A DNA stretch of 64,000 nt from Moniliella sp. 'wahieum' (Eukaryota): positions 62,001 to 126,000 of the forward strand of contig RSEE01000131.1 of NCBI GenBank assembly GCA_003971905.1, in the 5' to 3' direction. The first letter of the stretch is position 1; each line of letters begins with the position of its first letter. Shown piece after piece: positions 15,554 through 57,096 of this stretch. The notes beneath the pieces are model-generated. The model was not told the DNA's origin. It saw nothing but the letters and a program-made list of their open reading frames with translations, and did no database searches. Position numbers and translations under genes: made by a program.

Positions 15554-17498
15554 ATGCTGGCCGTGCTCGAGCCTCTGCTGCCCACCTCCCACCCCCGCAT
15601 GAGCAGCCTCCACCCCGCCAAAGCCACCGCCCCCTCGTCCCCCCCTCCTCGTCGGCGTCCCCACCACGCTGCCGCCGCCACGGTCCCAGCCCCAGCCCAT
15701 CCCTGCATCTTCTTCTTCCGCCCGCGTCCCGCTCTCCACGCATCCTCCCCCCCCAGCAGCTTGGCCTCCACCGGCAAAAGCCCCCCCACCACCCACATCA
15801 GCACCACCCGCCACGTCCCCGCCAAGCCCTCAACCACACCCAGCCGCCACCCTGTCCCCTCGCCCAACGGCAGCCTCTCTCTGCCTCTCCGCCGCCTGCT
15901 CCCGCCCCCGCTCTTGCGTCCACCCTTCTCCCTCTCCCTCTGCTTCTCCCCTCCCCTCCTGCATCCTGTCCTGCAGCTGCCAGCCCCACCTCAGTCCCCG
16001 CCCCCACCCCGCACCACCACCCGACGGAAGGAGACCATGCTCCCCTCCCGCCGCTCGATCCGCGCCGCAGGCTGCTCGCCGTGGCGCGGCGCAAGTCCGG
16101 CGCTGGTGTGTTCCGCCGTATTATGGGCAAAGCCACAGGGGATGAGCTGGGCCCGGGATCCCCCGCCGCAACCGCACAGTGCAGGTTCCACCGTCCGTCG
16201 AGCCTCGTCGCCTGCGGCGGTTGCAGCGCGGGGCCCAGTTGACGGCCGCGGCACTTGCCGGCTCGATCCGGCTCCCGGTGGCGTGAGTGCGGGGGCGCCC
16301 CCGCCCACCCCAAGGCCAAGGGGGAAGCGCGTTCGGTCGTGTCGGGCTCGGCTTCGTCCACGCTAAAAGAGATCATGTTGGGTGGGGGACGACGACGGAG
16401 TTCCGTCGCGTCCTCGGGCGGCGGGGCGCGTGGCACCGTCGTCGACTGGCTCGTTGCGGAGCAAGTACGGTGTGTGGGAGGGACGATTGGTAAGGGCGCG
16501 ACGGCGGTGGTGCGCTTGGCGCAAAAGTGGGATGGTGCGACGGCCGAGGACAAGTTGTATGCCGTCAAACAGTTTCGGTCCCGACGCAAGCACGAGACGG
16601 AAAAGATGTACGTCAAGAAACTCACGTCGGAATTTTGCATTTCGTCGACGCTGCACCATGTCAATGTGGTAGAGACGGTGGACTTGGTGCAGGACGAAGA
16701 GCAGCGGTGGTGCGAAGTGATGGAGTTTTGTCCTGGTGGCGATTTGTATGCGGCGATCAAGCGGGCACGATGGCAGTGGACGAAGTGGCTTGTACTTTAA
16801 CAAGTGGTGCATGGGATTGGTTACCTACACAGTGGGCGTCGCGCACCGGGACATCAAGCCTGAAATTACTCTTGGACGCCCAGGGCCGCATCAAGATTAC
16901 CGACTTTGGCGTGTCGGACGTGTTTCGCATGTGCTGGGAAACAGCAAACGCACTATTCGCGCGGCTTGTGCGGATCCGAACCGTACATTGCCACCGGAAC
17001 AGTTTGAAAACAAAGAGTACGATGCTCGCTGGTCGATGTTTGGGCAGCTGGGTGGTGTTGTATTGTCTCCTGATGCACCAGCTGCCCTGGCGACGGGCCA
17101 CCATGTCCGATCCTACTTTTGCCACTTTTGTTCGCACCTACCATGCTTCAGCTGCGCCGGCCCCGCTGGGCCACCTTGCCTCGCACGGAGCACGCACCCT
17201 CTTGAAGCACATGCTCTGCCCGGACCCGCGCCAGCGCTGGTCCGTTCGCCACGTCTTGCACGATCCCTGGGTTGCCACGATTGACGCGTGTGGCGAAACC
17301 GTCAGTAGCTCCCATACCCATTCCGTCGTATTGACCGCGCTGGCATGTTTGCCTCCCCCTTTTCCCACAATGCTTTCTCACGTTTGCAATCTGTTTGACG
17401 ACGGTTCATGTCCATCACGTATTTGGGTTTGCTGTTGTGTCCTCTGCCCTGTTTGGTGCCATCAGCTGCATATTCACAATGAATCGAGAGTAGAGTGA
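15554..17498 (+). CDS. HAL/NPR-family Ser/Thr protein kinase (Hrk1/Sat4-like); frameshifted; both ends approximate
   Basis: IGKGATAVVRL, YAVKQF, YVKKLTSEFCISSTLHHVNVVETVDL, VMEFCPGGDL, VAHRDIKPE, KITDFGVSDVFR, CGSEPYI; long low-complexity N-terminus. Confidence 0.9.
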
Positions 17499-17986
17499 AG
17501 AAAACACTTTCTCTAGAGAAACGACCAAAACGGACCCATGTTGGGGGCTGTGATGCACAACAGAAAGTGTATAGATAGTACCACGGATGCACCGGGCTGT
17601 GCCAGATCTTCTTTTGACCCGTCGATACCATGGGTGGGCACGAACTGTCTTCCAACCAAACGCCGAACAAGGGATGGGATGCTGGCCATGGGGAAAGCTC
17701 TTCTGATATGCCCCTGCGTGAAGCGGTGGCCAAGGCTATGGATGGGCACACGTCGTGGGTAGATTCTCCTCCGAATTGAGGTGGTGGTGGAGGCCTGATG
17801 GAACTCCAAACCCTAACGGGGCTGGGTGCGCACGTGACACGTGACTTGTTCGGCGTGCGCTGAGCGGAATGGTGATTGCGGGGGGCGGAAACGGCGGTGG
17901 TTTATTAATCAAGGTGTTGGCGGCCTGCTCTGCTTTGCTGCCCAGCATGCAGGTTGGCGATCGACCCCACCGTCGTACTTGCTGCC

Positions 17987-40170: not shown

Positions 40171-41588
40171 TTAGGCAGTCTCCGCCACATCCTTCTCCCG
40201 TACTTTGGGGCCGTGCTGGGCGTCATACGAACGAGCATAGGCGCGCGCATAGTCCACACCAACGCAGCCCAGAGCACGCAGCAATGCGCGTTGTGGACGT
40301 AAACGTCTTCCAACACGCCGCGCGGTTGTCCAGATTGGTGTGACCACGCCGCGCATCACCAACGCCACTGCCGCACGGCCCGGGCAGACCACACGCGTGC
40401 TCATGGGCCACCACGGCCCACGCGGCCCGTCGCAAGGCCGGGTCGGACGAGGTCAGTTGGCTCGCCACGTCCCATGCCCCGTACAAGGTTGTTGTGGCAT
40501 GGCCTTTGGCGGCGTGGCAAGTACCAACGCCGTGAGGAGGCAGCACACCAAATCCCACGCTAAAGCCTAGTAAGATCGGTCGGGTGTTTCGCCCAAACAG
40601 TAGCGCCGTACTCTTGATGCCCATCTTGACATCGTCCACTTTATCCTGGTGCGCATAGATCGTATCGTACACAATCGTCCAGCACCAACACCCTGCGTAC
40701 AACGGTACCACCGCCGCCCAGTCACAGCTCCCCGCCACCGCCGACCAGCCGAGAAGCGCACCCCAATTGAAGGCCAAGCCTGCCGTGTCGTTAGTACCGT
40801 GCACTGCGTGTCTCGATGGGGTGCAAGGAGCGCAAGGGGGAAGAGGGAGGAAGGGAGAAAGAGGGAGGAAGAGGAGGAAGAGGAGGAAGTGCGACGTACC
40901 AAGGACGGATTGGGGCCAGTAGGTGACCCGTTTCATAGCGGGGTAGATGACCACAAGGGAGAGCGACGATGCGCCCAGCACGATCGAGTACGGGTTGAGT
41001 TGCACCAGCACCCCCAGGCCGACGGACAACTGACCCGCCAAAAACGCCCAGGCGTGCGGGACAGTCAGTGCGCCCGAAGCGAGTGGTCGAGAAGCCGTGC
41101 GACTCACCCCGGCATCCAAACCGCCGATCCCACATATCGTTGATCGTGCACCCTGCTCCGCGCATCACCACGGCCCCGACCCCAAACAGAGCCAGCTGGC
41201 CCACCAGCACACTCGGACTCGCTCCCACCGCATGCGCACACAACGTCATGCTAAATGCACAGGGCCAGTACAACAGCCACGTCCCAATCGGCTTGTCCAG
41301 CCGCATCAGGTCCAGGTACGGCCGTACCTTCTCCACCAGCGACCGAGGCGCTGGCGCAGGCGAAGGAGAAGGAGAAGGCGCCGAGGGAACCACCGTGCTG
41401 ACCCCCCGTGCACCCACCCTGTGCGGCGCACAAGCAAGCGCACGGCGGGAGAGCGGCCGCGGTGGGACGGCAAGCGGCGCAGTCCAGAAGGAGCGCACGC
41501 GAGGCACCGGAGGGCGGAGGCAGACGGCAGAGGGACACACCATGCTGCGCGGCGCGAAGGGCTTCCCCCGCATCAGGATCGAGGCCAT
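40171..41588 (-). CDS. COQ2: 4-hydroxybenzoate polyprenyltransferase (UbiA family); intron 40780-40899
   Basis: [90 protein letters not shown]; mitochondrial presequence. Confidence 0.96.
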
Positions 41589-42138: not shown

Positions 42139-43009
42139 TCAAACCTTGGCCGCCGCTGCGGCCTCAATCTTGTCCTGCGTCTTGGTAGCAAAGTCCGAAG
42201 GATCATGGCGTTCGCGCAACTGATCCTCCAACGGGCCCGTGGCCTTATTCACAATCCGGCCACGCCGCACCGCCGGACGCGCATCGATCCGTTTGGCCCA
42301 CTCCACCACGTGCGTGTACTCGTGCACGGCCAAAAACGTGTCGGAACCAGCGTACAACCGACAATGCCAACCCGCCCAGCCACGGCCAAATGGCCATGTC
42401 GGCAATCGTGTACTCTTGTCCCGCCACATACGGAACCTCGGCGAGACGACGGTTGAGCACGTCGAGCAACCGCTTGGATTCGAGCGCAAAGGGTTGATCG
42501 GGTACTCCTTCGGGTTGTGGTACGCGTAAAGTGACCTAGGTTGCCCAGGTACGGCGCGCTGCCCATCTGCCAAAACAGCCAATTGAGCGTCTCGGTCTTG
42601 CTGCGCACGTCGGTCGGGAGGAAAGCTCCATACTTCTCGGCCAAGTAGACGAGGATCGAACCCGATTCAAAAACGCGCAACGGACCACCTTCCACCACCA
42701 TGGTCCACCAGCGCAGGAATCTTCGAGTTGGGATTCGCCTCCACAAAGCCCGAACCGAATTGCTGGCCTTCCATAATGTTGATTAGAAACGCATCGTAGT
42801 TGTCGAGCTTGCCCGCTTCAATCAACTCTTCGAGCAGAATGGTGACTTTTTGTCCGTTCGGCGTGGCAAGACTGTACAGCTGCAAGTCCGTCTTGCCCAC
42901 AGGCAGCTCGGCCGTCGAAGTAGGGCCAGCAATGGGGCGGTTGATGTTGGCAAACGGGCCCGAACCGGGCTTCCATTCCCACACGCGGGGGGGATTACGA
43001 CTCGGCCAT
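42139..43009 (-). CDS. yghU: Nu-class glutathione transferase / GSH-dependent disulfide oxidoreductase, YghU-like; intronless; frameshifted
   Basis: PPRVWEW..GPFANINRPIAG, LQLYSLATPNGQKVTILLEEL, NPNSKIPAL, VFESGSILVYLAEK, EYTIADMAIWPW, RPAVRRGRIVN...QLRERHDPSDF. Confidence 0.9.
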
Positions 43010-43774
43010 GATGGAGGAGGTGGAGAGGACACGGACAGTAAGGGCGCGGGGGCGGCGGGACGTAGCAAAGACGAACGGAGAAGGGAACGCGAGTAGGGCA
43101 CAGATACGCGCAGTCTCTCCATCCACAGCTGGGCTACGAGGGGGATACGAGCGAGGGAGGGAGGTCGGGATTCGCCGCTTCAAGTAGGCAAGCGGATCAC
43201 CGATGACAAGCAGACTGCGTGATGTCGTTCGCCGCGGTGCACAGGCCATCCGGGGTGAGGCCGAGGACGGCGATAAGCGGTGGGCGGTGCGACGCTAAGT
43301 CCGGCAAAAGGGCGTGGGGGGTCGCCAGTGTGAAACCGCGCACTGGGGAGTGAGTGTCTGGGACGGCAGAACTGCAACCCCCGGCTTTAGGCCGGTGATG
43401 CCGGCTGTATCAACGCAGCCCCGCTTTCGCCCCGTGGCGTCATCGCCTTGACTGGAAAGCTTTCAATTGGCGAAGCAATCGACTAGGCCAACAAGCGCCA
43501 TAGCCAGGCCAAACGTGCTCGGCCACGGTGAAGGAGGATATAATCGAGATGATCCATCAGAGGTCAACTTGACCCGCGGTCTGGCGTTGGTTGGACCATC
43601 CCCACCAACAACAACCCGTGTCATATGAAACACGGAAGAGGCGGCTCGTAGGGAGCGGTGGGCAGCATATCTTTTGGATACACGCCCAGTGATGGGCGGC
43701 CGACTGAGCTGATGGGCGGCGACTGAGCTGATGGGCGCAGTGAGTGAACTCCACGTGAACCATCTGCGCGTCCA

Positions 43775-44022
43775 GAGTGGTGTGCTGAAGGAGGAGAGAG
43801 GTGCAGAGGCGATGAGGAGGGGGTAGGGCCGTTTATATAGCAGAGGGTACCGGGGAGCAGAGGGAGCGTCCGGGCGGATGGTAAGAGTGGTCATCGCTAC
43901 TAATCGTCCTACTATCTTCTCTGCTTCCCCGGCCAGCTCGCTGTTACGGGCGACGGTGGGTGGCCGAGCCCGACCGAGCGCATCCGAGTCCATCCTCTCC
44001 CCTTTGTCCCTGGCTTGGGTTA
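43775..44022. repeat. Copy 1 of a duplicated segment downstream of PDC, with a minus-strand TATA box (copy 2 at ~54639-54872)
   Basis: GAGGAGAGAGGTGCAG...GGGGTAGGGCC.TTTATATAGCA...CAGCTCGCTGTTACGGGCGACGGTGGGTGGCCGAGCCCGACCGAGC...CATCCTCTCCC occurs at both sites. Confidence 0.9.
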
Positions 44023-44657
44023 GGTCTACGTCAAGACTATAGTAGGCTGGCTTGCCTGAGTTCCGCTAAACGTTGAACAAACCCATGCAGTCTTTGTGTC
44101 CAAACGGAGCATGTTCCCATCGAGATCTATGCAAGTAGAAGAAGGCCTGTAGATCAGATGGCCCCTAAACTGACTTCTGAAAGAGCGAGGGAGCCGATCC
44201 CAAGCACGGAGAGGGTAAGCGACGTATCGAGAAGTTGGGGCTGCAGTTGTCCCCCGCTACTACCTCTGTCACCGTCCCCCCGAATACGAAAGGCTCCATA
44301 CATACACGTTAATAATACTACCACTGACGGCGGTGCTGCATGACGCCTACAGGATGGGACCTACACAACCTTGCCACACAAGCAGCAGCCTCATCTGCTT
44401 AACCCCGACGAGCCCCTTCTTGCCCCAATATACCCCCGCTTGGAGCCACCAATAAGCCCGAGCACGAAGAGGAAACATACCATCAGTTGGCCTTTCCAAC
44501 CCCGTTTGTACCCATAAATCCTCCGAGCTATATAATAACGGGAAAAGCGATACTACGATTCCAATTGATAGACGGAAACAAACAAGGAATTCGAAGTGAA
44601 ACAGAGAGGAGCAGAAGGGAAAACGCAAGCAAAGAGTCGGTTACACGTATCTTGCCC

Positions 44658-45727
44658 TCACAGGCAGCTTTTGATCAAGTCGACAAAAGGCTGGAAAACG
44701 GGGGAGCTAGTACCGCCGGACAAAATACTGTCATGACCATGGTTGGTATCGATGAAGAGCGAGCTGGACAAACCAGCAATGTTGGTGAAGGTGGTAATGT
44801 CCCCGCGCAGTACCTCTAGCCCACCCGCGGAAACAAAAACCTTGTCGGGCGAGGGAGAAACAGCCGACCAATCAATATAGTCCTTGAACTGGTTTTGCAG
44901 CGGGGCTTGAACTGCCTCCACATCGGGGAGATACTCAATAGCTGACTCACGGAGGAACTTGGCTGTGAGGATATCAGAATTGTTGTTGTTGCTTGCCCAG
45001 GTCCCATTGTTCTGGGTCGGGTACAAGTTGACCCATGGGCTCAACAAACCAACACATGAAGGTTTCTGGGTAATCGATGGAGTAACCGAGAGAGGATGCG
45101 CCAAGGTGCGGGCCACCTCAAGGGAGAGATGACCTCCGGCCGAATCACCAGCGAGGATAATGTTACTGCTCGATTGCGACAGACGGTTGTAAACCTCGAC
45201 GGCTTGCTGGAGCTGGGTCGGGTAGGGATAGTCCGGAGCGAGGTTGTAATCCAGCCACAGGATGGAAAGACGGTCGCTTCCGACGGATTGATAAACGCTT
45301 TGCAATTCCGTTGCAAAGACGGGCAGCGTACCAATCACGTATGCCCCGCCGTGAAGATAGAAGAGCACAGGATCGTGTTGCGTTCGGTTTTCCGCTTCGG
45401 TGAACCAGCGCACACGGTCGGAACTCACATGGGTGAGATCCGTGGCGAACACCGCATTCTTGTTGGGCATTGGGTTTGTGGCGAAAGCCTCGTTTTCAGC
45501 CAGAGTGAAGGGCGGGATCACGGAGACAACCTCGGGGGTGAAACGTTGTTCTCCAACGCCGATGCAAAGAATCCCACGATGCGGGATTCAGTTTGCTCAA
45601 CCGGATCAAACGGGCTGACAACCGGAAAGGTCAGGCGCTTGGCCATGTTGGAAAAGGTGGGGAACGCTTGAACAGTAGCGACCCCGGCGGCCGAAAGGGT
45701 GAAAGCAATGGTTTTTTGGAGCTTCAT
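44658..45727 (-). CDS. Secreted HSL-family alpha/beta hydrolase (Say1/steryl acetyl hydrolase-like esterase); intronless; one frameshift near 45535
   Basis: Signal peptide MKLQKTIAFTLSAAGVATVQA; DPVLFYLHGGAY, LDYNLAP..PYPTQL, ILAGDSAGGHL, LLSPWV, EVLRGD, HGHD. Confidence 0.88.
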
Positions 45728-46521
45728 GAGTTCTGTGCGTGTGTGGATGTATGCAATGGACCGTGGCAGACCGCCGAAAACCACGCACTATTTAACCAAA
45801 AAGATACGATCTCTTTACTCTCACGGGAGGGCGAGAGAGAGAAAGTGTATTCCCTTCTATGCCTCCGGAAGCGGCCCAAATGTCAATGCGCGAGTGGGGA
45901 ACCAGCTGCGCTTTGATGTTCCTCATAAGGCCGAGAGCTCAATGAGTGCTCTGAAGCGAGCATTCGATCGGCATCCAACGAAGAGTGTGTATTATCGGTG
46001 TGGGGAGTGGACTCAGTACCCGCACATATGCGAAGGTATACGTCTTTTTTTCGCAATGACGAGTATGAGGAAATGGGACACCCGCAAGTGTATGTGTGGC
46101 CGTTGCCCCACAGTGGGCCTCTTCCTCGTCGACGTAGGTACTCGGATTTTTTGAGTTGGGAGGATTTGGCTGATGGCGCTGACGTGTGGGGTACTGAGTG
46201 TGCTGAGGCCTCTGAGGCTATGTAGGGAAAGCTGCGTCCGCCTTGCTTCCAGTTGTAAGCACCGAAGCTTGAAGTTCATGAGCAGGCACTAGCGCATTGA
46301 ACATGGTTGACGTTGAACGTTAACTCAAGGGGGGCAGGAGGCCGCCTGGGGGAAAAGGCACAGCGAGTAGAAGCCGGCGGCCTGCTGCCTGCATCCGCAT
46401 ATGGGGCATGGGGTTTTTGTGTGAGCGCTTAGGCTAAGCGCTTTCCCCCAACCACCTCGTCACAACTGTCAACGTTGTCAACACTGGCATGTGTCACAGA
46501 TGTCAGGGAGGCTTGAGGGCC

Positions 46522-46604
46522 TCAAGCTTCAAGCTTCAAGCTTCAAGCTTCAAGCTTCAAGCTTCAAGCTTCAAGCTTCAAGCTTCAAGCTTCAAGCCTC
46601 AAGC
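46522..46604. repeat. (TCAAGCT)n heptamer tandem repeat
   Basis: Directly visible, about 11 units. Confidence 0.95.
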
Positions 46605-48783
46605 CTGGCATCTCAGAATCTGAGTCTCAGAGCTGATTTACGCGTTACGCGTTACGCCCCACTCAACATATGTATTCCAATGCCGGCGGGGAGTACGAAG
46701 TAAGTCTTGTGGGGTTGGTCCCCCCCCCGCAATGTCTGAGGCATTGAGGCTTTTTGCTCTTTTTCTGTGGGGTTGAATCAACACGTGCGACCGCGACGCG
46801 TGACGCGTATGCATATGAATATCACGCCTGGCGGAGTGCTGGCCTGTGCTGGCGTGGCAAAAATGGGGTGGACGCCTTAGGGTTAGGGATTCGGAGGTGA
46901 GCCTCTGGAGATGTATGGAGTAGCACAATGGCGATAATGGTGGTGGTCAAGGTAGGGTCGAAGCTGTCTAAAAGCCTTCTGCCACACCCTAGAAAAGACA
47001 GGGGTTCGAGCAAGGCAGAACCTACACACGAGGAAGCTTCGCAGGTCAAATACGGGGCAAAGGGTATAATGTGTTACGATCATTCCATCCTGGTTCCCCA
47101 GCGATGTTCTATAGTACTTTTGAAGTGTGGTTGTGCGGTCGTCGTAGGAAGACAGAGAAGAGCTGAGTTGAACGGCTGAACGTGTGGAACGTTGAACGTT
47201 GGAAGCAGGCCGAGGAAGAGAAATGGAGAGGAACCAGGTCAGAGGATAGGGATGCTGGCGTGGTGCCAACACATGTGGAGAAGAAGATGCCGTCTCCGAT
47301 CCTTTTGGTCAACTATGGTAAGGCTCAAGGCTTAGTTAGGCCGAAGGCCTACTAAAAAGCGCCTTGTTGGCCTATATGTACGGGGCCGCCGGTCCCAACA
47401 GTTCATCCCCTCTTTGCTCGCCGAGGCCCTCCATTATGCCCAATGTGGGGCAGGGGAACAACATCGAAATGCACCAACCTGGCGTGCCCTCCATCGGCCA
47501 TAGCGCGTAAGGCGTAAAGCGCGTAATGGGATCTGGCAGGATCTGGCCTTGGGGTCGATGAAGCTTTCTGTGGCGGCGATCGGCCACTTAGTTTAAAATA
47601 TCCAGTACTCAGTCAGAAGTTCTTCAGCGCGAGTACGAAGTATATTTTTTACACTACGGTGTTGCCAGACGGTGATCCAGTGATTGGCTTCACCGGTCGT
47701 GGAGCCCTTCCGCGGTCTCAGATCTCACTAGCTCACTAGCAGTAATACCCGAGAGCTCCGCGGACCCGAGGGGGGAGGGCGCGCGTGGCCTTCTATCTTA
47801 TGTAGCCCTCGTCTTGCAGTTTACCGCCAACGCCCATCTCGCGCTACGCTACTGTCCTATACGCTTCAGTATTCCTTGCCTCGCCGGTGGTCGCTTAACA
47901 GAAGCGGGTCTACCGACCCTTCCACTAGTAAGTAGATGCAGCAAAAGCGTGGTTGCCCGCAATGATCTTGCCACCGCCATTGCCACGACCTATGTGGAGT
48001 GTAGGTGTGGTATAACCTTTGGTTGAACGCGACGCACACGAACCTCCTTTGCGGCAAGCGCCGGATTATGACCGGAGCCACCGCACTTGCCTCACGTACA
48101 GGCACTTCGCAAACGGGATCCCGAAGAGCACTCTTCCATTGAGGTCAGAGCGCTATGGGAACGTGACACACCCGAGGTTCTCGTGACCGAGAGCCCGCTG
48201 AGGTGCAAGGAGTCTCGCCTCCCGTCCGCCCGTCCGACAGCTCCTCGTTGAAACAGAGAGTGAAGTGCTCGAGCCATACATCAAACTGGCGCGTGAATTC
48301 AGCTCCACTGCTGTACTGGCGGGGCGCCGGGGAGGATCGGTCATAGCATACTAGTATTGGAGCGTGTGCGACGCCGCCGCGACTTCACGTTTTGCCATAT
48401 TGTCGGAAGGGTGCCGGAAACTCGCGTTCCATTTTAGCTCCAGGGGAGCCAGGCTCGGCGCGAGAGATGACCAATAAAAGCACAGCACCCAGAGTGACAT
48501 CCATGACTGCGTTATAGTCAAGGTGTTGAGTCGCATTGGACTCTAGCAGGCATGATCAGCTTTCCCATCGAGATCGATGTAACGAACACACATTTTTGAC
48601 AAACCGACGGGCCCACGGGCCATAGGTTGCCACCTTGCCAGTCAAGGTAACGTACGCCACCTGATTGGCCGCCATTGATGTTTTAATGGCACTTTGAGAC
48701 AACACTGGCTCTCCGCGTTTTTGTCGGAGCAAGGCCGCAGCAGGGCTGCGTTCTGGCAGAGGATGTAGTAGTGTCCAGAGCTG

Positions 48784-49243
48784 CCACATTCCCACCTATT
48801 TCTACACAAACATATGGACTGGATTATGTGAGGAATGTCCGATATTCATGTGAAAAGGAGTGGAGGGGTCACCGACCGGCTCCAAATGGAAGTCTATAAT
48901 GCGGCTTTGTTGGCGGCGGTCGTGAAGGCGGCCTGGGCGCGAGAGCTCGAGGAGAGTCCCCTCGGGGAGAAAGACCTCGACAAGGTGAGCTTTGTCGGCC
49001 TTGTTGAATTCAGGGTCGGTCAGCAACGTCTCAAGCTCGGTCTTGGTGTGCACAGCGTGGTACGCAGTCTTGGCGGGAACGGGGTCGCTGGCATGAGAGG
49101 ATACGGCAGGTTGAGTCCAAGTGGGTGGGGGGTGAACAAATCAATCAATTTCGAGTGGTTCCAAATTGCAATGTCGTTGTATGCCTCGTCCGGACCAAAG
49201 ATCTGCCGCTCCGCTTCGTACCCGTCATTGTGAGGAGAAACAT
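48784..49243 (-). pseudogene. Duplicated 3' fragment of the PDC gene plus its 3' flank (source ~54923-55383)
   Basis: Co-linear with 54923-55383: NDGYEAERQIFGPDEAYNDIAIWNHSKLIDLF...HTKTELETLLTDPEFNKADKAHLVEVFLP; homology stops at GAGAAACAT. Confidence 0.93.
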
Positions 49244-49719
49244 CATATAGCTAATCGAAATTTCTAGCCCAGAACCTTGCCGGCCACGCCACAAGCTTGT
49301 CTTTAGATTTGAGGGGCACAACCTTGTCACAGCCTCGCCAACACAGCTAGCCCCAACCTCTTGGACCACACGGCGGCAAGGCCGCCCAGCGAGGCTGTCC
49401 CTAGATTGCTGCCTATAAAGCTCGTCGCAACCTTGTCCGCTATTCTAGTCGCAACATTTGTGAACGGCGGCCAGCCTTGAGTCATCTTAAAAAAGAGGCC
49501 GACCCACGAATCGATCCTGAGGTTTCTCCAGCAAATAGTAGGAATTGGCCGTTGCACCAATGGAGCCTAAGAATCAAGCGGCAATTTGGCAATCTTGGGC
49601 CCACATGTGCTGTGTCCGTTTTCAGCCAAGTCGCTAACAACTGATAGACTGATGGTGTAGATATACATAACAGTGGTGACTACCATCATTAGCCATTCGG
49701 GAAGTATCTAAACATTCGT

Positions 49720-52700
49720 TACGGATTGTACTGCCTCCAAAACATCGTCGGCAGAAGGGCATTCTCGCCTCGACCGCCCACAGTCCTGGGCAAAAGCCAA
49801 GTCCGCAAGTCGCAGAATATATCGGTGGGGGGAGAGAAAGAGTTGACAAAGTGGTTGAGCACGTAGCGCTGTTCCGCCGACATCCCAGACAAGTTTTGTG
49901 CTGGACCCCATCGAACGTCAAGCCAGTGGTTGTATCCGTAATGCTGTTGGGGACAACCCGGCACTTGGCCTTCACGCAATTGTGCTGGACGTTAAGCGAA
50001 CCAAGATGGTGTGGATCTGCGAAGCCGGAATGTAAGTCATGCGTCGGGCGGACGCGCGCGGTAGCTCCAGGCCTCGCATGTCATATGCCGAGTCAATAGG
50101 CATGATGCGAGCCAAAGCGACCTTGACCCAAAGCACAGGGAGCACAAGGTTGGAACCAGTCCTCGCTGCTCCCTACCCCCCCTCGCGAGTCGGATTGGCC
50201 CGCCGGTGCACAGCAACCATATTAGGCCGTTGGGCGGCAATGTGTTCTATCCAGCCAATGGAGAAGGGCGGCGCATCATGATTCTGGGCATGGAGGGGTG
50301 GGGGACGTCACCAATATCCTGTTGGGCAACAAGCACCCAGTCCCCCCTGGCACAAAGCTGGCCATGCTGTACGCGGACCACGGCATGTCGACAATATCTT
50401 CGACCGGCCCAGTGGCAGAACGCCGCTCTGCTGTCATTGGTTCAGGAAGCCCAACCTTGTCGTGCACCGATATGACTTTGGCCTTAGCCACAGTCTGGAT
50501 CGAAGTCGGACACGATCTAGCGCTGGAAGGGCTGTTGCGGCCGGTACCGGGTGCGGGAGGGACTTGCCACACACTGCCGAGCCCTTGGCCCGAGCTGAAT
50601 CGTCGTGCCAGCTTGAGGCGGTGTACCATTCAATTGCAAAGCTGCTCGGCCCCTGCCGATCCAGACGTCTGCGGACAATTTCTTGGTGTTCCCACACCGG
50701 GCAGACCCTGTGTCACATCCTCCCCTTCATCGTCAGGGTTGTATCGTGGGCCACGAGTTTTGCACGCGGCATGTCGATTGCCCGCCCTCCACATAGCAGG
50801 TTTTGCAGGTTCTCCTGGGCTGCTACCTTGTAGTTCAAGTCGCGGCATATATCTTTGCGGTTCGTAAATGACCGCATTGCGTATGACGCGGACAAACTCC
50901 TCCTCACGCTGTGTGTCAGCGTTCTTGAGAGGACCCCACAACAGCGCCTGCTGGGAGAGGTGACTCTGAAGGTGGAACTTGGGGCGACGAACGAGCATGG
51001 CCGGGTCGATGGCAGCGATGGCCATGAAAATGTGTGAATCACCGCCTTTTGTCAAGCAGTTCCTGTGGGCACATCTGTACGGGCAGAATGTAAGCTGTGA
51101 ACTTGGACTAGCGAGATGATCACGGGCCTAGGAGAGCTAGCAGTTTCAGACGTACGCCATATGTAGCCCGGTCTTGAAATGCGAAGCCATCGATGTAGCA
51201 AAAGCCACTTAATGCGTGCGGCGGCCACAATGCACTTGCGGACATTCTCCAGCCTCTCAATCTTGCTCAGAAGTCTGTCTCGCCGTTTCCGTGACGCTGG
51301 GCTTGGCGGAGTCCAACCGTAGCATGGCCGCCAAGTTGGCAGCACCAGAGGGAGAGTCTGGCACAATATCTTGCAGTCAACCCCCGTGATGACTGAGCGC
51401 ATGCTGTGAACCACTTTAGTGCCATTGAGCCGTCGACCCACCGATTCCATGCCCCATGAGTTGAACGAATCCAGCCACAGCGCTAGCGAGGGCCCCTTAT
51501 CGAAGTTCGAGTCCGTCAGCAGCTCGATCGGGCCTTGACTCGCCCAAGGAGAACTGTGTGCATGACGTCGATCGCCAGCTCTTGCCGACCGAGAAACTCG
51601 AGCACCCCTGCCATTCGTGGACAGTCAAAAGGGGGTTGAACACTTAGCCGTTGTTCTTGAACTCATCCAGCAGCTCACGAACGCCGGAGTCCAAATTGGA
51701 AAGCAGCCTCTTGCGCTTCTTGCCATTCGTCGCCCCTGCTGAGTCCTCCAGAGTCTTGCGGGACTTGAACAGGATAAAGGATACGTCTTTCATATACTTG
51801 TCGTCGTTAACCCCGGTCTGGCTCGCCCGGTCGTCGATCCGACACGGCCGTCGTTCTTGACGACCATGTCGAGTTGGTGATCGACTTCGCGCCTAGTTTC
51901 GACACTTGAATGTATATCGTCTTCCGTCTTGATGTCCGCCGGTAATAGTCAGTCCCATTTTGATGCACAGCAGTAACACCAGCGGTGTCGTATACGCACT
52001 AGACAGTCAGCCACGTTCTCCGGCAACTATTCGTTCCCAGTTGCCGTCCGCAATCGCAAAACGCAGCAGCACGTGGGCAGTCATGCCCATAATGGAAGCC
52101 ATCTCGTTCGCGGCCACGTTGTCGCCCTTTATCATCCGCAGCACGGGCTGTACAAGGATCCATCCCTCGTGGTCGAATCCCAGACAGGGATGAGCTCTTC
52201 GTGATACTGCCTGCAAGTTCGAAAAAGACGTTAGCATGCTGCTTTTGCCCAGGAATCACAGTGACTTCAAAGGCAACTTGGCCTAGACTGCGATACTCAC
52301 TCTAGCTGTTTTACCAACTGCTTGCACAACGGGAGGAGAGACTTGGCCGTTTCCGATGCAAAGAGGAAAAGGTTCTTTGCCCATCTAGACTGCGACCGTG
52401 AACGTGCATGTTGCCCGGCAGCATGCTGTTCAGAGAGATTGGCCGATTGGACACATTGTCTGCAAAACCATCAGCCCAGCCCACCAGCTGTGGAGACGGA
52501 CCAGAGCTCGGCCACAGGCCTTGGCTCCAAGGGGATTGACGCCCTTCCCAATTTCCTCACCGTCCCTTGTTCCTGTATCGTATCAGGATGTGGAAGTCAT
52601 TATTAGTCAACCCGACAAGAATTGCCGCTGCGTGAAGAGCAAGAAAACTTACTAATGGTAGTATAGTCGTCGTAGAGGCGCAACTTGGTTATGTCCACCT

Positions 52701-53254
52701 GAGTAAGAATGAAGGCGCGTGTCCTCTTTTCCAGTGAACTTCAGCAGGTTGGACGTCTCGTCTTGGACCAGGTGGATTCCGATCCCGTGCCACGAGTCGC
52801 TATCAGCGTCGCGTTGCCACAAGACGGGAAAGAGAGGCGCGAAAATGCCGACCAGGTGAACAGATTCGCCAAGGTACATGTGAATAGCCAGATCGCGTGG
52901 ATGCTTATTGACCGTGACCATCGGCTGAGTCCTTGTGCCGATCAGATCCCATCGTCCCTTGTGTGGTTGTTCAATGAACCCGTCCTTGAGGGCCTGGACC
53001 ATCGCCCTGAGCGACCAGGGATTGGGATACTGTGACATCTTGGAGCGGATGGACGAGTTCGAGGACATGTATGAGGTGGAAAATGCGGTCTCACCCGAAG
53101 GACCCAATGTACATCGTCTCCTGATACAAACTGCTCGATGCACATATGAGGCGGGCACACCTTCTCGATTACCTTTTAGTTTTGTTGAGCGAGTAAGAGG
53201 CAATTTCCCTTCGCTCTTGACCGCGACTTGTGCGAATGCGGTCTTCTCTCGCAA
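49720..53254 (-). pseudogene. Degenerate fungal CACTA-like (Plavaka-related) transposase; intron 52211-52300
   Basis: Ordered motifs across frames: IKGDNVAANEMAS (~52120), FNPLFD...IDVMHTVLLG (~51640-51545), RPKFHLQSHL...WGP...REEEF...R...TNR (~50980-50865), LNVQHNCVKAKC (~49995-49960), RYVLN. Confidence 0.8.
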
Positions 53255-54255
53255 CGAGACGGTTGGACTGGAGTATCGTGCTGTATATAGCTGCTGTTAC
53301 GACTATCTCAAGTGCGTAGCTTAAAAAAATCTATATATAAACTAAACGCTCAGGCTGCAGGTGGGCGCCTTGAGCTGGCGGTGGCGTGGGGGGGCAACAC
53401 TGGCGCCATGCGGGTGGACCACCGGTGTGCCACCGGTGGTTGCGCCTATAACCGCACGCAGCTGCGCCGATGCGCTTGCCTCTCGACTACCACCACCACC
53501 GCCACCGCCCCTCTCTCGCTGGCCACACACTGTGCTACCGGAGCTGGCGACATGTGTCCTCGTTGCGCTGCCATTATATGCCCCCCCGCCACGCGCTTGC
53601 TGTGCTAGCGCCTGGCCTCGGTATGTCCACGCCCTCCGGGCGGATGCCTGTCGCACTGACTGACCTATGCGCAGCCACCGGAACCGAGTCGGCCACGCCT
53701 AGTGGCAGGCCTTGCCTGATATCATTCGCGCCAAGATGCCGGTCATACCTCCCGAAGGCGAGTTGAAGATCAAAGACGGGGGCGCTTCGAGCGGACGGTC
53801 GACGGCGACGGGTTCTCCGGCCAGGTCAGTACCTGCGCTTTGCCTTATCCGCCCATATACTGACAACGCCTTTAAGCAGGATGATTGGAGAAGGCGCTCA
53901 AGTGCTGAGGAAACGACCACGGAACATGTGCTGGCTTGCACACAGATCATCGTTTGCCGTATGGTTGCGGGACTCATTCTCCCTCTCGAACGCGATGACG
54001 CTTCGCCTCCACGCCGCAAGTTGTATGTGGCTCTTGTATCTTTGCCCTTCTATCCCTATCATCTCGGCGTCCCCATGATGTTTTTGGTCTGCGATTAAAC
54101 GACGAAGGCAAAGCTTCTGTGGTTGCCGCCGTCCTGAGGCTCCTCGAACAACCTGCCGTTGCCTTGGCGCTCCTCTACGTCTCTGTGTCTAAACAACCAT
54201 GGCAATGCATGCTACTTTTAAAGATAATCCACTGCCTGATCTGATAGCATCGTGG

Positions 54256-54381
54256 CACCCTAGCCACCACCCTAGCCACCACCCTAGCCACCACCCTAGC
54301 CACCACCCTAGCCACCACCCTAGCCACCACCCTAGCCACCACCTAGCCACCACCCTAGCCGCCAGCCTAGCCGCCAGCCTA
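54256..54381. repeat. (CACCCTAGCCAC)n 12-mer subterminal array of the transposon
   Basis: About 10 units, decaying to the right, ~230 bp inside the right TIR. Confidence 0.92.
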
Positions 54382-55033
54382 GTGAAAATCTGTGGCTAGC
54401 GTTGCCACCAGCCTGCCAGCAAGGCTGCGGACTGTCCGGGGATAGGTGGGGGATAGCTGGGGGTAACCTGGGGCCAAGCTGTCGGGTATAGATTGTCTCG
54501 ACCTTGGCGACCATCTTGCGCAAGCTTTTCTTGTACAGGGTTGTGGCACTTCTAATCATAGACTCACGGTATCAAATTCTTACCTTGAGCGAGATCGGCG
54601 GCAACGATGTGACTAGAAATTTCGATTAGCTATCAGTGGTGCTTCCGAGGAGAGAGGTGCAGAAGGCGATGAGGAGGGGGTAGGGCCTTTTATATAGCAC
54701 AGGGTACCGGAGGGGAGCAGAGGGAGCGTCCGGCGGATGATAGAGGGGTGATCGCGAATCGTTCTATGTTCTCTGCTTCCCCTCAGCTCGCTGTTACGGG
54801 CGACGGTGGGTGGCCGAGCCCGACCGAGCCCTACCGAGCCCATCCTCTCCCTTGCCTCCCTTGCCTGGGTTACACACCTCTCTCCGGTGGGCGGGCCCCA
54901 GCCTGGGATCTGCCCATGCCATCCACATTCCCACCTACTTCTGCACAAAGGTATGGGCTGGAGTATGTGAGGAATGTCCAATGTTCATGTGAAAAGGAGT
55001 GGAGGGGGTCACCGTCGGGCCCCAAATGGAAGT

Positions 55034-57096
<2,063 letters not shown>

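Follow-up and report, generated by a model that had tools for sequence, protein, structure and literature searches.

The best matches of solved structure to the gene reported here are the bacterial Nu-class glutathione transferases (GSTs) NaGSTNu and YghU. In NaGSTNu, seven contacts hold the first glutathione and three the second, Thr51 and Asn53 activate the thiolate, and Tyr166 and Tyr224 are needed for lyase activity, with kcat lowered about 400- to 1000-fold in the Y166F variant (PMC5892560). Escherichia coli YghU cleaves the lignin aryl-ether substrate about 100-fold less efficiently than NaGSTNu (PMC5892560). Ure2pB, a short-form member of the class, is reported in most fungi examined (PMC3815920).

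A survey of 829 fungal genomes counted 20,093 transfers from bacteria to fungi, 158 of them in one Moniliella genome (PMC11708051). Two genes of Moniliella sp. 'wahieum', with the best-match annotation 'glutathione-dependent disulfide-bond oxidoreductase', are called transfers on sheet 2 of its gene table, and this annotation is seen in only two rows among the 14,928 available of about 20,093 genes; in the main text, Moniliella is mentioned once and the gene is not (PMC11708051). Among the other transfers listed for Moniliella are two xylulokinases of actinobacterial type and GH127 genes (PMC11708051). The assembly itself has bacterial-type XylB at two strong loci and GH127 at three, and by this gene content the host would be a Moniliella-like fungus. 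A paper discussing a fungal YghU was not found in the literature searched, whose coverage excludes most subscription papers.

Gene model, copies and surroundings

The window, that is the whole analysed stretch of 64,000 nt from contig RSEE01000131.1 of Moniliella sp. 'wahieum', carries the yghU-type gene on its minus strand, with exact coordinates for the start ATG (43009-43007) and the stop TGA (42141-42139) (Table 1). Its span of 871 nt is not one open frame in the assembly. Compared with the YghU model, NCBIfam PRK11752, three pieces in frame give E values of 5.6e-44, 9.7e-23, and 8.2e-19 over profile positions 7-108, 112-166, and 223-286. As the frame is broken into pieces, they score 150.5, 80.8, and 67.9 bits, and a fourth piece 59.2 bits, against a curated cut-off of 325 bits. 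The YghU model outscores the YfcG model on both pieces that match the two models. The longest open piece is 70-77% identical to its best 120 matches and has 5UUN (E 1.9e-37) and 3C8E, YghU itself (E 5.7e-36), as best solved structures. The window copy has the N-terminal extension as well as the GRIVN...ERH segment at its C-terminal end, as recognized in the original prediction. Short forms have a short N-terminus, a three-residue spacer after EEL, and no ERH tail; all six copies found in the genome have the extension, an eight-residue spacer, and ERH. By these features, the window gene is a long-form Nu-class GST of YghU type.

Table 1. Positions of the yghU-type gene and of features around it in the window
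Feature	Position	Strand	Remarks
yghU-type Nu-class GST gene	42139..43009	-	PRK11752 matches; least diverged of three paralogs; intronless; five small indels in assembly
Longest open yghU piece	42691..42996	-	N-terminal extension (Asn26 equivalent), Thr-Pro-Asn motif, thioredoxin-fold domain
Apparent TAA at codon 5	42995..42997	-	from six-copy DNA alignment; at a break absent from second haplotype
Frame break in run of T	42524..42528	-	sole window break common to second haplotype (C51)
yghU leader	43010..43110	-	pyrimidine-rich; A at -3 of ATG
COQ2 / UbiA-family prenyltransferase	40223..41588 (ends approximate)	-	TIGR01474, PF01040; spliced
COQ2 intron	40780..40899	-	GT donor, TACTAAC branch, CAG acceptor; canonical fungal signals
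Haplotype-specific insert	44022..54634	.	absent from C51; bounded by direct repeat of about 230 bp (43791-44022, 54647-54872)
Say1/Mug180-like esterase	44658..45470	-	PF10340, E 7.9e-23; inside insert; multi-copy family
5.4-kb repeated element	49247..54633	.	perfect 21-nt terminal inverted repeats
Thiamine-pyrophosphate enzyme	55395..56441	-	PF00205, PF02775; presumably pyruvate-decarboxylase-like; about 1.5 kb upstream of yghU in haplotype without insert

The assembly is 69.5 Mb long in 223 contigs and contains six yghU copies, spread over four contigs with lengths from 158 kb to 1.76 Mb. The copies pair at 96-97% DNA identity (the window copy with C51, C76_a with C1_a, and C76_b with C1_b), with 67-71% between the pairs, and the contigs of a pair are collinear over tens of kilobases. 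The assembly therefore consists of two haplotypes with three yghU paralogs each. One paralog is located beside COQ2, and the other two form a tandem pair among SGT1-like, RGS-like, asparagine synthase, and Tim10 genes, the RGS match being weak (E 0.0026). Divergence between the paralogs amounts to dS 1.4-1.9 and dN about 0.2, and that between the haplotypes to dS 0.08-0.11 and dN 0.008-0.013; judged from these rates, all six copies are under purifying selection. Three EF1B-gamma loci, not two, were also found (on C24, C30, and C13), and for these as for the three GH127 loci either haplotype contigs are missing or extra duplications exist.

COQ2 lies about 550 bp downstream of yghU on the same strand. 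Other genes of the window are eukaryotic as well, with eIF4G, TDP1, a kinase, ALG8, a tannase, and an actin-like protein among them, and no bacterial neighbour gene was seen among the Pfam-labelled flanks of either locus. Codon usage of yghU (GC3 of 0.68-0.71) is within the host range of 0.61-0.81, and no Shine-Dalgarno-like purine tract was found in its leader. An intronless, bacterial-like gene in a noisy assembly could come from bacterial contamination or a chimeric assembly join. This origin is very unlikely, close to excluded: each locus is present on two independent haplotype contigs with the same eukaryotic flanks (eIF4G, ALG8, actin-like, and COQ2 at one, SGT1, RGS-like, and Tim10 at the other), the six copies are spread over long contigs as given above, and the 96.8% identity of the window and C51 yghU genes matches that of neighbouring host genes between the haplotypes (93-99%). 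At the level of the assembly, the check for contamination was passed.

The window is collinear with C51 from position 1 to 44021, yghU and COQ2 included. The following insert is made up of the esterase region and the 5.4-kb repeated element, and yghU is about 1 kb outside it, in sequence common to both haplotypes. The gene had been described as sitting by a spliced COQ2 at the edge of a rearranged block; adjacency and splicing of COQ2 hold, but the gene itself is outside the block. A link of yghU to the haplotype-specific insert was ruled out in this way, and a functional link to COQ2 was set aside, having adjacency as its sole support, with two of the three paralogs located elsewhere. At least nine other full-length copies of the 5.4-kb element exist at 92-93% identity, together with older copies near 80%; its 40 frames of at least 70 aa gave no Pfam match, and by its structure it is probably a DNA transposon. 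Relatives of the esterase gene, 74-78% identical, occur on C92, on C120, and at a more distant place of C131. Duplication in the region is nested, as 43791-44022 is repeated at 54647-54872 and 48784-49243 at 54923-55383, so that about 0.7-0.8 kb upstream of yghU is duplicated around the inserts, in the window haplotype only (43791-55383). Short tandem arrays with 7-nt and 12-nt units are located at 46505-46616 and 54244-54390. Collinearity with C51 stops at about 61972, and the sequence beyond, with a KHE1-like gene, is unmatched in the compared C51 stretch.

Breaks in the reading frame

The frame of the window copy is broken near 42996, 42687, 42526, 42491, and 42361. All breaks are of 1-2 nt, by which introns as their cause are ruled out, and no intron-sized gap appears along 276 aligned residues. 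The gene is then intronless as predicted, but it is not an intact frame in the assembly, having an apparent TAA at codon 5 and the five breaks.

The breaks could mean that the window paralog is a true pseudogene, with the break common to both haplotypes being real and only the tandem paralogs working. Five breaks were also detected in the C51 copy, one of them at the same place, and the density of frame-shifting gaps between haplotypes is about twice as high in yghU (11 in 883 bases, 12.5 per kb) as in 15 other coding segments, eIF4G and COQ2 included (39 in 6,290 aligned bases, 6.2 per kb, a value that reads low because these segments were picked as open frames). Against this, C51 shows none of the other four window breaks, and the read-through core has no in-frame stop. 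Along the 124 codons past the shared break, the haplotypes differ by 6.5 synonymous and 3.5 non-synonymous changes (pS 0.076, pN 0.013, pN/pS 0.17; Fisher p=0.015 on the whole-number counts 6/85 vs 4/269). The same kind of break occurs in eIF4G and in COQ2, where Pfam positions 3-50 and 48-130 are in different frames near 41110 with no gap between them. A pseudogene is therefore unlikely. As neighbouring genes, COQ2 among them, show the same errors, the window breaks are probably long-read sequencing errors, and the gene would be intact in the organism; selection downstream of the shared break suggests a systematic homopolymer error at this position.

Copy C1_b (C1:1725100-1725950) is the most broken of all copies, and the start codon ATG of its partner C76_b is missing from it. 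It may be a decaying allele or merely the product of a noisier contig.

Origin of the gene

Translated across its breaks, each of them filled by X, the window copy has 70.4% identity to a Sphingobium YghU and 61.4% to that of E. coli, as against 41-51% (at most 51.3%) to the named long forms of algae and protists. In the protein searches, the 8,000 best word-sharing candidates were scored and the best 120 taken, so that these searches could have missed a fungal ortholog of less than about 60-70% identity. All top matches with an organism name were bacterial (43 of 120 listed in one search and 28 of 120 listed in another), the rest being without organism name. Among prokaryote genomes, a collection without eukaryotes, the best 80 of 593 loci were 58-66% identical over the C-terminal half and were nearly all Proteobacteria by title. 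Looking up 30 of 150 cluster representatives gave ten with a eukaryote source and none with a fungal name, and no fungal name was found among the top matches and cluster representatives examined. The C-terminal piece hit only bacterial GST clusters in the ESM Atlas, and a degenerate pattern for the motif common to the six copies had no match in metagenome contigs.

In a 344-row FastTree tree, all six copies form one clade with support of 100. A 52-row IQ-TREE analysis, computed without the most broken copy C1_b, keeps the remaining five together at 100/100 and places them inside a largely unresolved, mostly proteobacterial group of 46 rows (94/97), which also contains diatom-type proteins. The tree is a near-polytomy, and none of the sister placements compared in AU tests was rejected (diatom-type proteins, p=0.20; Acetobacteraceae, p=0.38; short-form outgroup, p=0.35). 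One clade of all eukaryote-type long forms was rejected (p=0.018). Nesting in a bacterial clade, which had been proposed as a check, is the maximum-likelihood result, but it is not statistically established, given p=0.20 and 0.35 for alternatives. Sphingosinicella as the sister (FastTree support of 91) was dropped, as the IQ-TREE trees did not keep this placement, and the test speaks neither for nor against a donor among the acetic acid bacteria (p=0.38).

Two length characters were compared with the top matches. The spacer before GHF has 10 residues in all six copies and 11 in 316 of 319 top matches (three unmatched). The fungal copies have 8 residues in the loop after EEL. This loop has 8-9 residues in 302 of 317 top matches but 3 in the short-form and several protist proteins, and its length in the fungal copies argues against a basal position. 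By comparison with the 70.4% of yghU to Sphingobium, the eIF4G domain of the host is only 46% identical to the nearest fungus in the tree, where it stands on a very long branch beside Ustilaginomycotina rows without support, and in the ESM Atlas it received a broad Basidiomycota label.

Long-form YghU relatives also exist in diatoms and other protists. The proteins P0369, P0394, P0378, P0413, and P0429 are such long-form YghU-like proteins from diatom, red algal, and dinoflagellate transcriptomes, labels that are presumed from the genus names. The position of the diatom-type group among bacterial sequences is suggestive of further independent acquisitions. Such relatives, together with the sister position to diatom-type copies left standing by the AU test, leave some room for a gene received from another eukaryote, or for an old eukaryotic gene that almost all other fungi have lost. 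Either course seems improbable, since the identity to eukaryote copies is so much lower than the 70% to bacteria, the single eukaryote-type clade was rejected, and no fungal name appeared among the examined matches. Moreover, the annotation falls on two genes of one genome among the 14,928 rows of the survey table, which lists transfers only and cannot show orthologs (PMC11708051).

Horizontal origin by a single old transfer from bacteria is most likely, and the candidate transfer of the original prediction is supported by the bacterial names of the top matches, by the searches in which no fungal ortholog turned up, and by the eukaryotic flanks in both haplotypes. The best reading is of one transfer, old and kept under selection, because the copies form one clade with a shared deletion, the paralogs differ far more in dS than the haplotypes, and GC3 is host-like; the donor cannot be named. 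A single yghU gene would have passed from a bacterial, most likely proteobacterial, donor to an ancestor of the fungus, and this gene would have been duplicated twice long before the haplotype split, giving the copy at COQ2 and the tandem pair elsewhere.

A native short-form Ure2pB was not found when the noisy assembly was searched exon by exon, the queries being the YfcG model, an algal protein of the short form, and four Pfam models for GST; since no fungal Ure2pB served as query, its lack is tentative. The GST-domain matches inspected are taken, by motif, to be EF1B-gamma, GluRS, Arc1p-like, GHR-like, GTT-like, glutaredoxin, and one other GST. A further GST, of a different type and apparently without introns, is present on C143 at about 17270-17870 (L038:1471-1821 and L153). 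A GST with an Aureimonas best match is in the published Moniliella transfer list (PMC11708051), and a second GST transfer in this genome is possible.

Active site and relation to known systems

In the E. coli numbering, which reproduces Tyr167, Tyr225, Arg260, and Asn262 of PMC5892560, the window paralog keeps N26, T52, N54, Q87, K100, E117, S118, Y167, and Y225, to which that paper assigns binding and catalysis. The glutathione contacts Gln87, Lys100, Ile101, Glu117, Ser118, and Arg178 are all present, although the window copy is broken at Arg178, which was read in the other five copies. Asn25/26 of the N-terminal extension, the contact to the second glutathione, occurs in all six copies. The Thr-Pro-Asn motif reads TPNG in the window and C51 copies; the four tandem copies have SPNG, preceded by an insert of one residue, the loop before Pro-Asn being of the shorter form in 316 of 317 top matches. 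Position 167 is Tyr in the window and C51 copies and in 316 of 317 top matches and Phe in the four tandem copies. Tyr225 is kept in the window and C51 copies.

The window copy is the conservative paralog and, by analogy, would work as bacterial YghU, as a homodimer binding two glutathione molecules. Thr52 and Asn54 would stabilise the thiolate of the first glutathione, which would attack a disulfide or a glutathione thioether, and the reduced substrate and GSSG would be released. The predicted activity is most likely the GSH-dependent reduction of disulfides, together with the deglutathionylation of conjugates. When the cell is under oxidative or chemical stress, the enzyme would probably carry out these reactions in the cytosol, a task ascribed to native Ure2pB in other fungi. 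Taken jointly, one bacterial transfer, two old duplications, an intact window copy, and YghU-like disulfide reduction and deglutathionylation make an account that can be held with good confidence.

The aryl-ether lyase activity mentioned in the original prediction is no more than a biochemical possibility, and nothing points to a lignin role as the function of the gene. As a glutathione lyase of the lignin beta-aryl-ether pathway, the enzyme would correspond to NaGSTNu in Novosphingobium, and the equivalents of Thr51, Tyr166, and Tyr224 are indeed kept in the window paralog, whose nearest matches by identity are sphingomonads. The same residues occur, however, in 316 of 317 top matches and in E. 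coli YghU, which has no such pathway, and etherase genes were not found among the Pfam-labelled neighbours of the loci; this role is highly doubtful. The tandem paralogs with Phe167 may have a new substrate range, because the matching Tyr-to-Phe exchange cuts the lyase turnover of NaGSTNu 400- to 1000-fold. That the fungus lost native Ure2pB and replaced it by YghU, with the COQ2-linked copy keeping the site and the tandem copies being remodelled, maybe for a new substrate range, is a tentative scenario and the less probable one.

Single-gene transfers from bacteria to fungi are common, and yghU adds one well-supported example. New are the single origin of the copies, the search in which no native Ure2pB was found, and the altered active sites in two paralogs. 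The genome offers a natural experiment, in which one acquired enzyme gave three long-kept paralogs, two of them changed at residues measured in a bacterial relative, and the three make a test set for what sets disulfide reductases and glutathione lyases apart within the Nu class.

Compared with known systems, the fungal protein shares with Ure2pB and E. coli YfcG (short-form Nu class; PcUre2pB1) the class, the Thr-Pro-Asn motif, and thiol-disulfide oxidoreductase activity (PMC3815920), the last being predicted here by analogy. Extension, loop insert, and ERH tail are all missing from the short forms, and those tested are 38-46% identical. The pair of genes in the gene table of PMC11708051 has as best match a 'glutathione-dependent disulfide-bond oxidoreductase' of Neorhizobium with 53% identity; the yghU transfer is probably already contained in this supplementary table, the likeness being by annotation and not by sequence. 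The pair is counted there as two events, whereas three paralogs of one origin are recognized here.

NaGSTNu (Novosphingobium aromaticivorans, 5UUN/5UUO; PMC5892560) is matched by the window paralog at Thr51, Asn53, Tyr166, and Tyr224. The fungal protein extends past the residue matching the C-terminal, substrate-holding Phe288 of NaGSTNu (PMC5892560), and the beta-etherase pathway known for NaGSTNu has no sign among the labelled neighbours of the fungal loci. With E. coli YghU (3C8E; NF008731 / PRK11752), the window paralog has in common the long form, the N-terminal extension, the C-terminal ERH tail, 61% identity, and all residues binding the two glutathione molecules. Unlike it, the fungal copies have a one-residue deletion in the GGGFGHF loop and exist as three paralogs in a fungal host, and the tandem paralogs differ further by a one-residue insert, Ser before Pro-Asn, and Phe at position 167.
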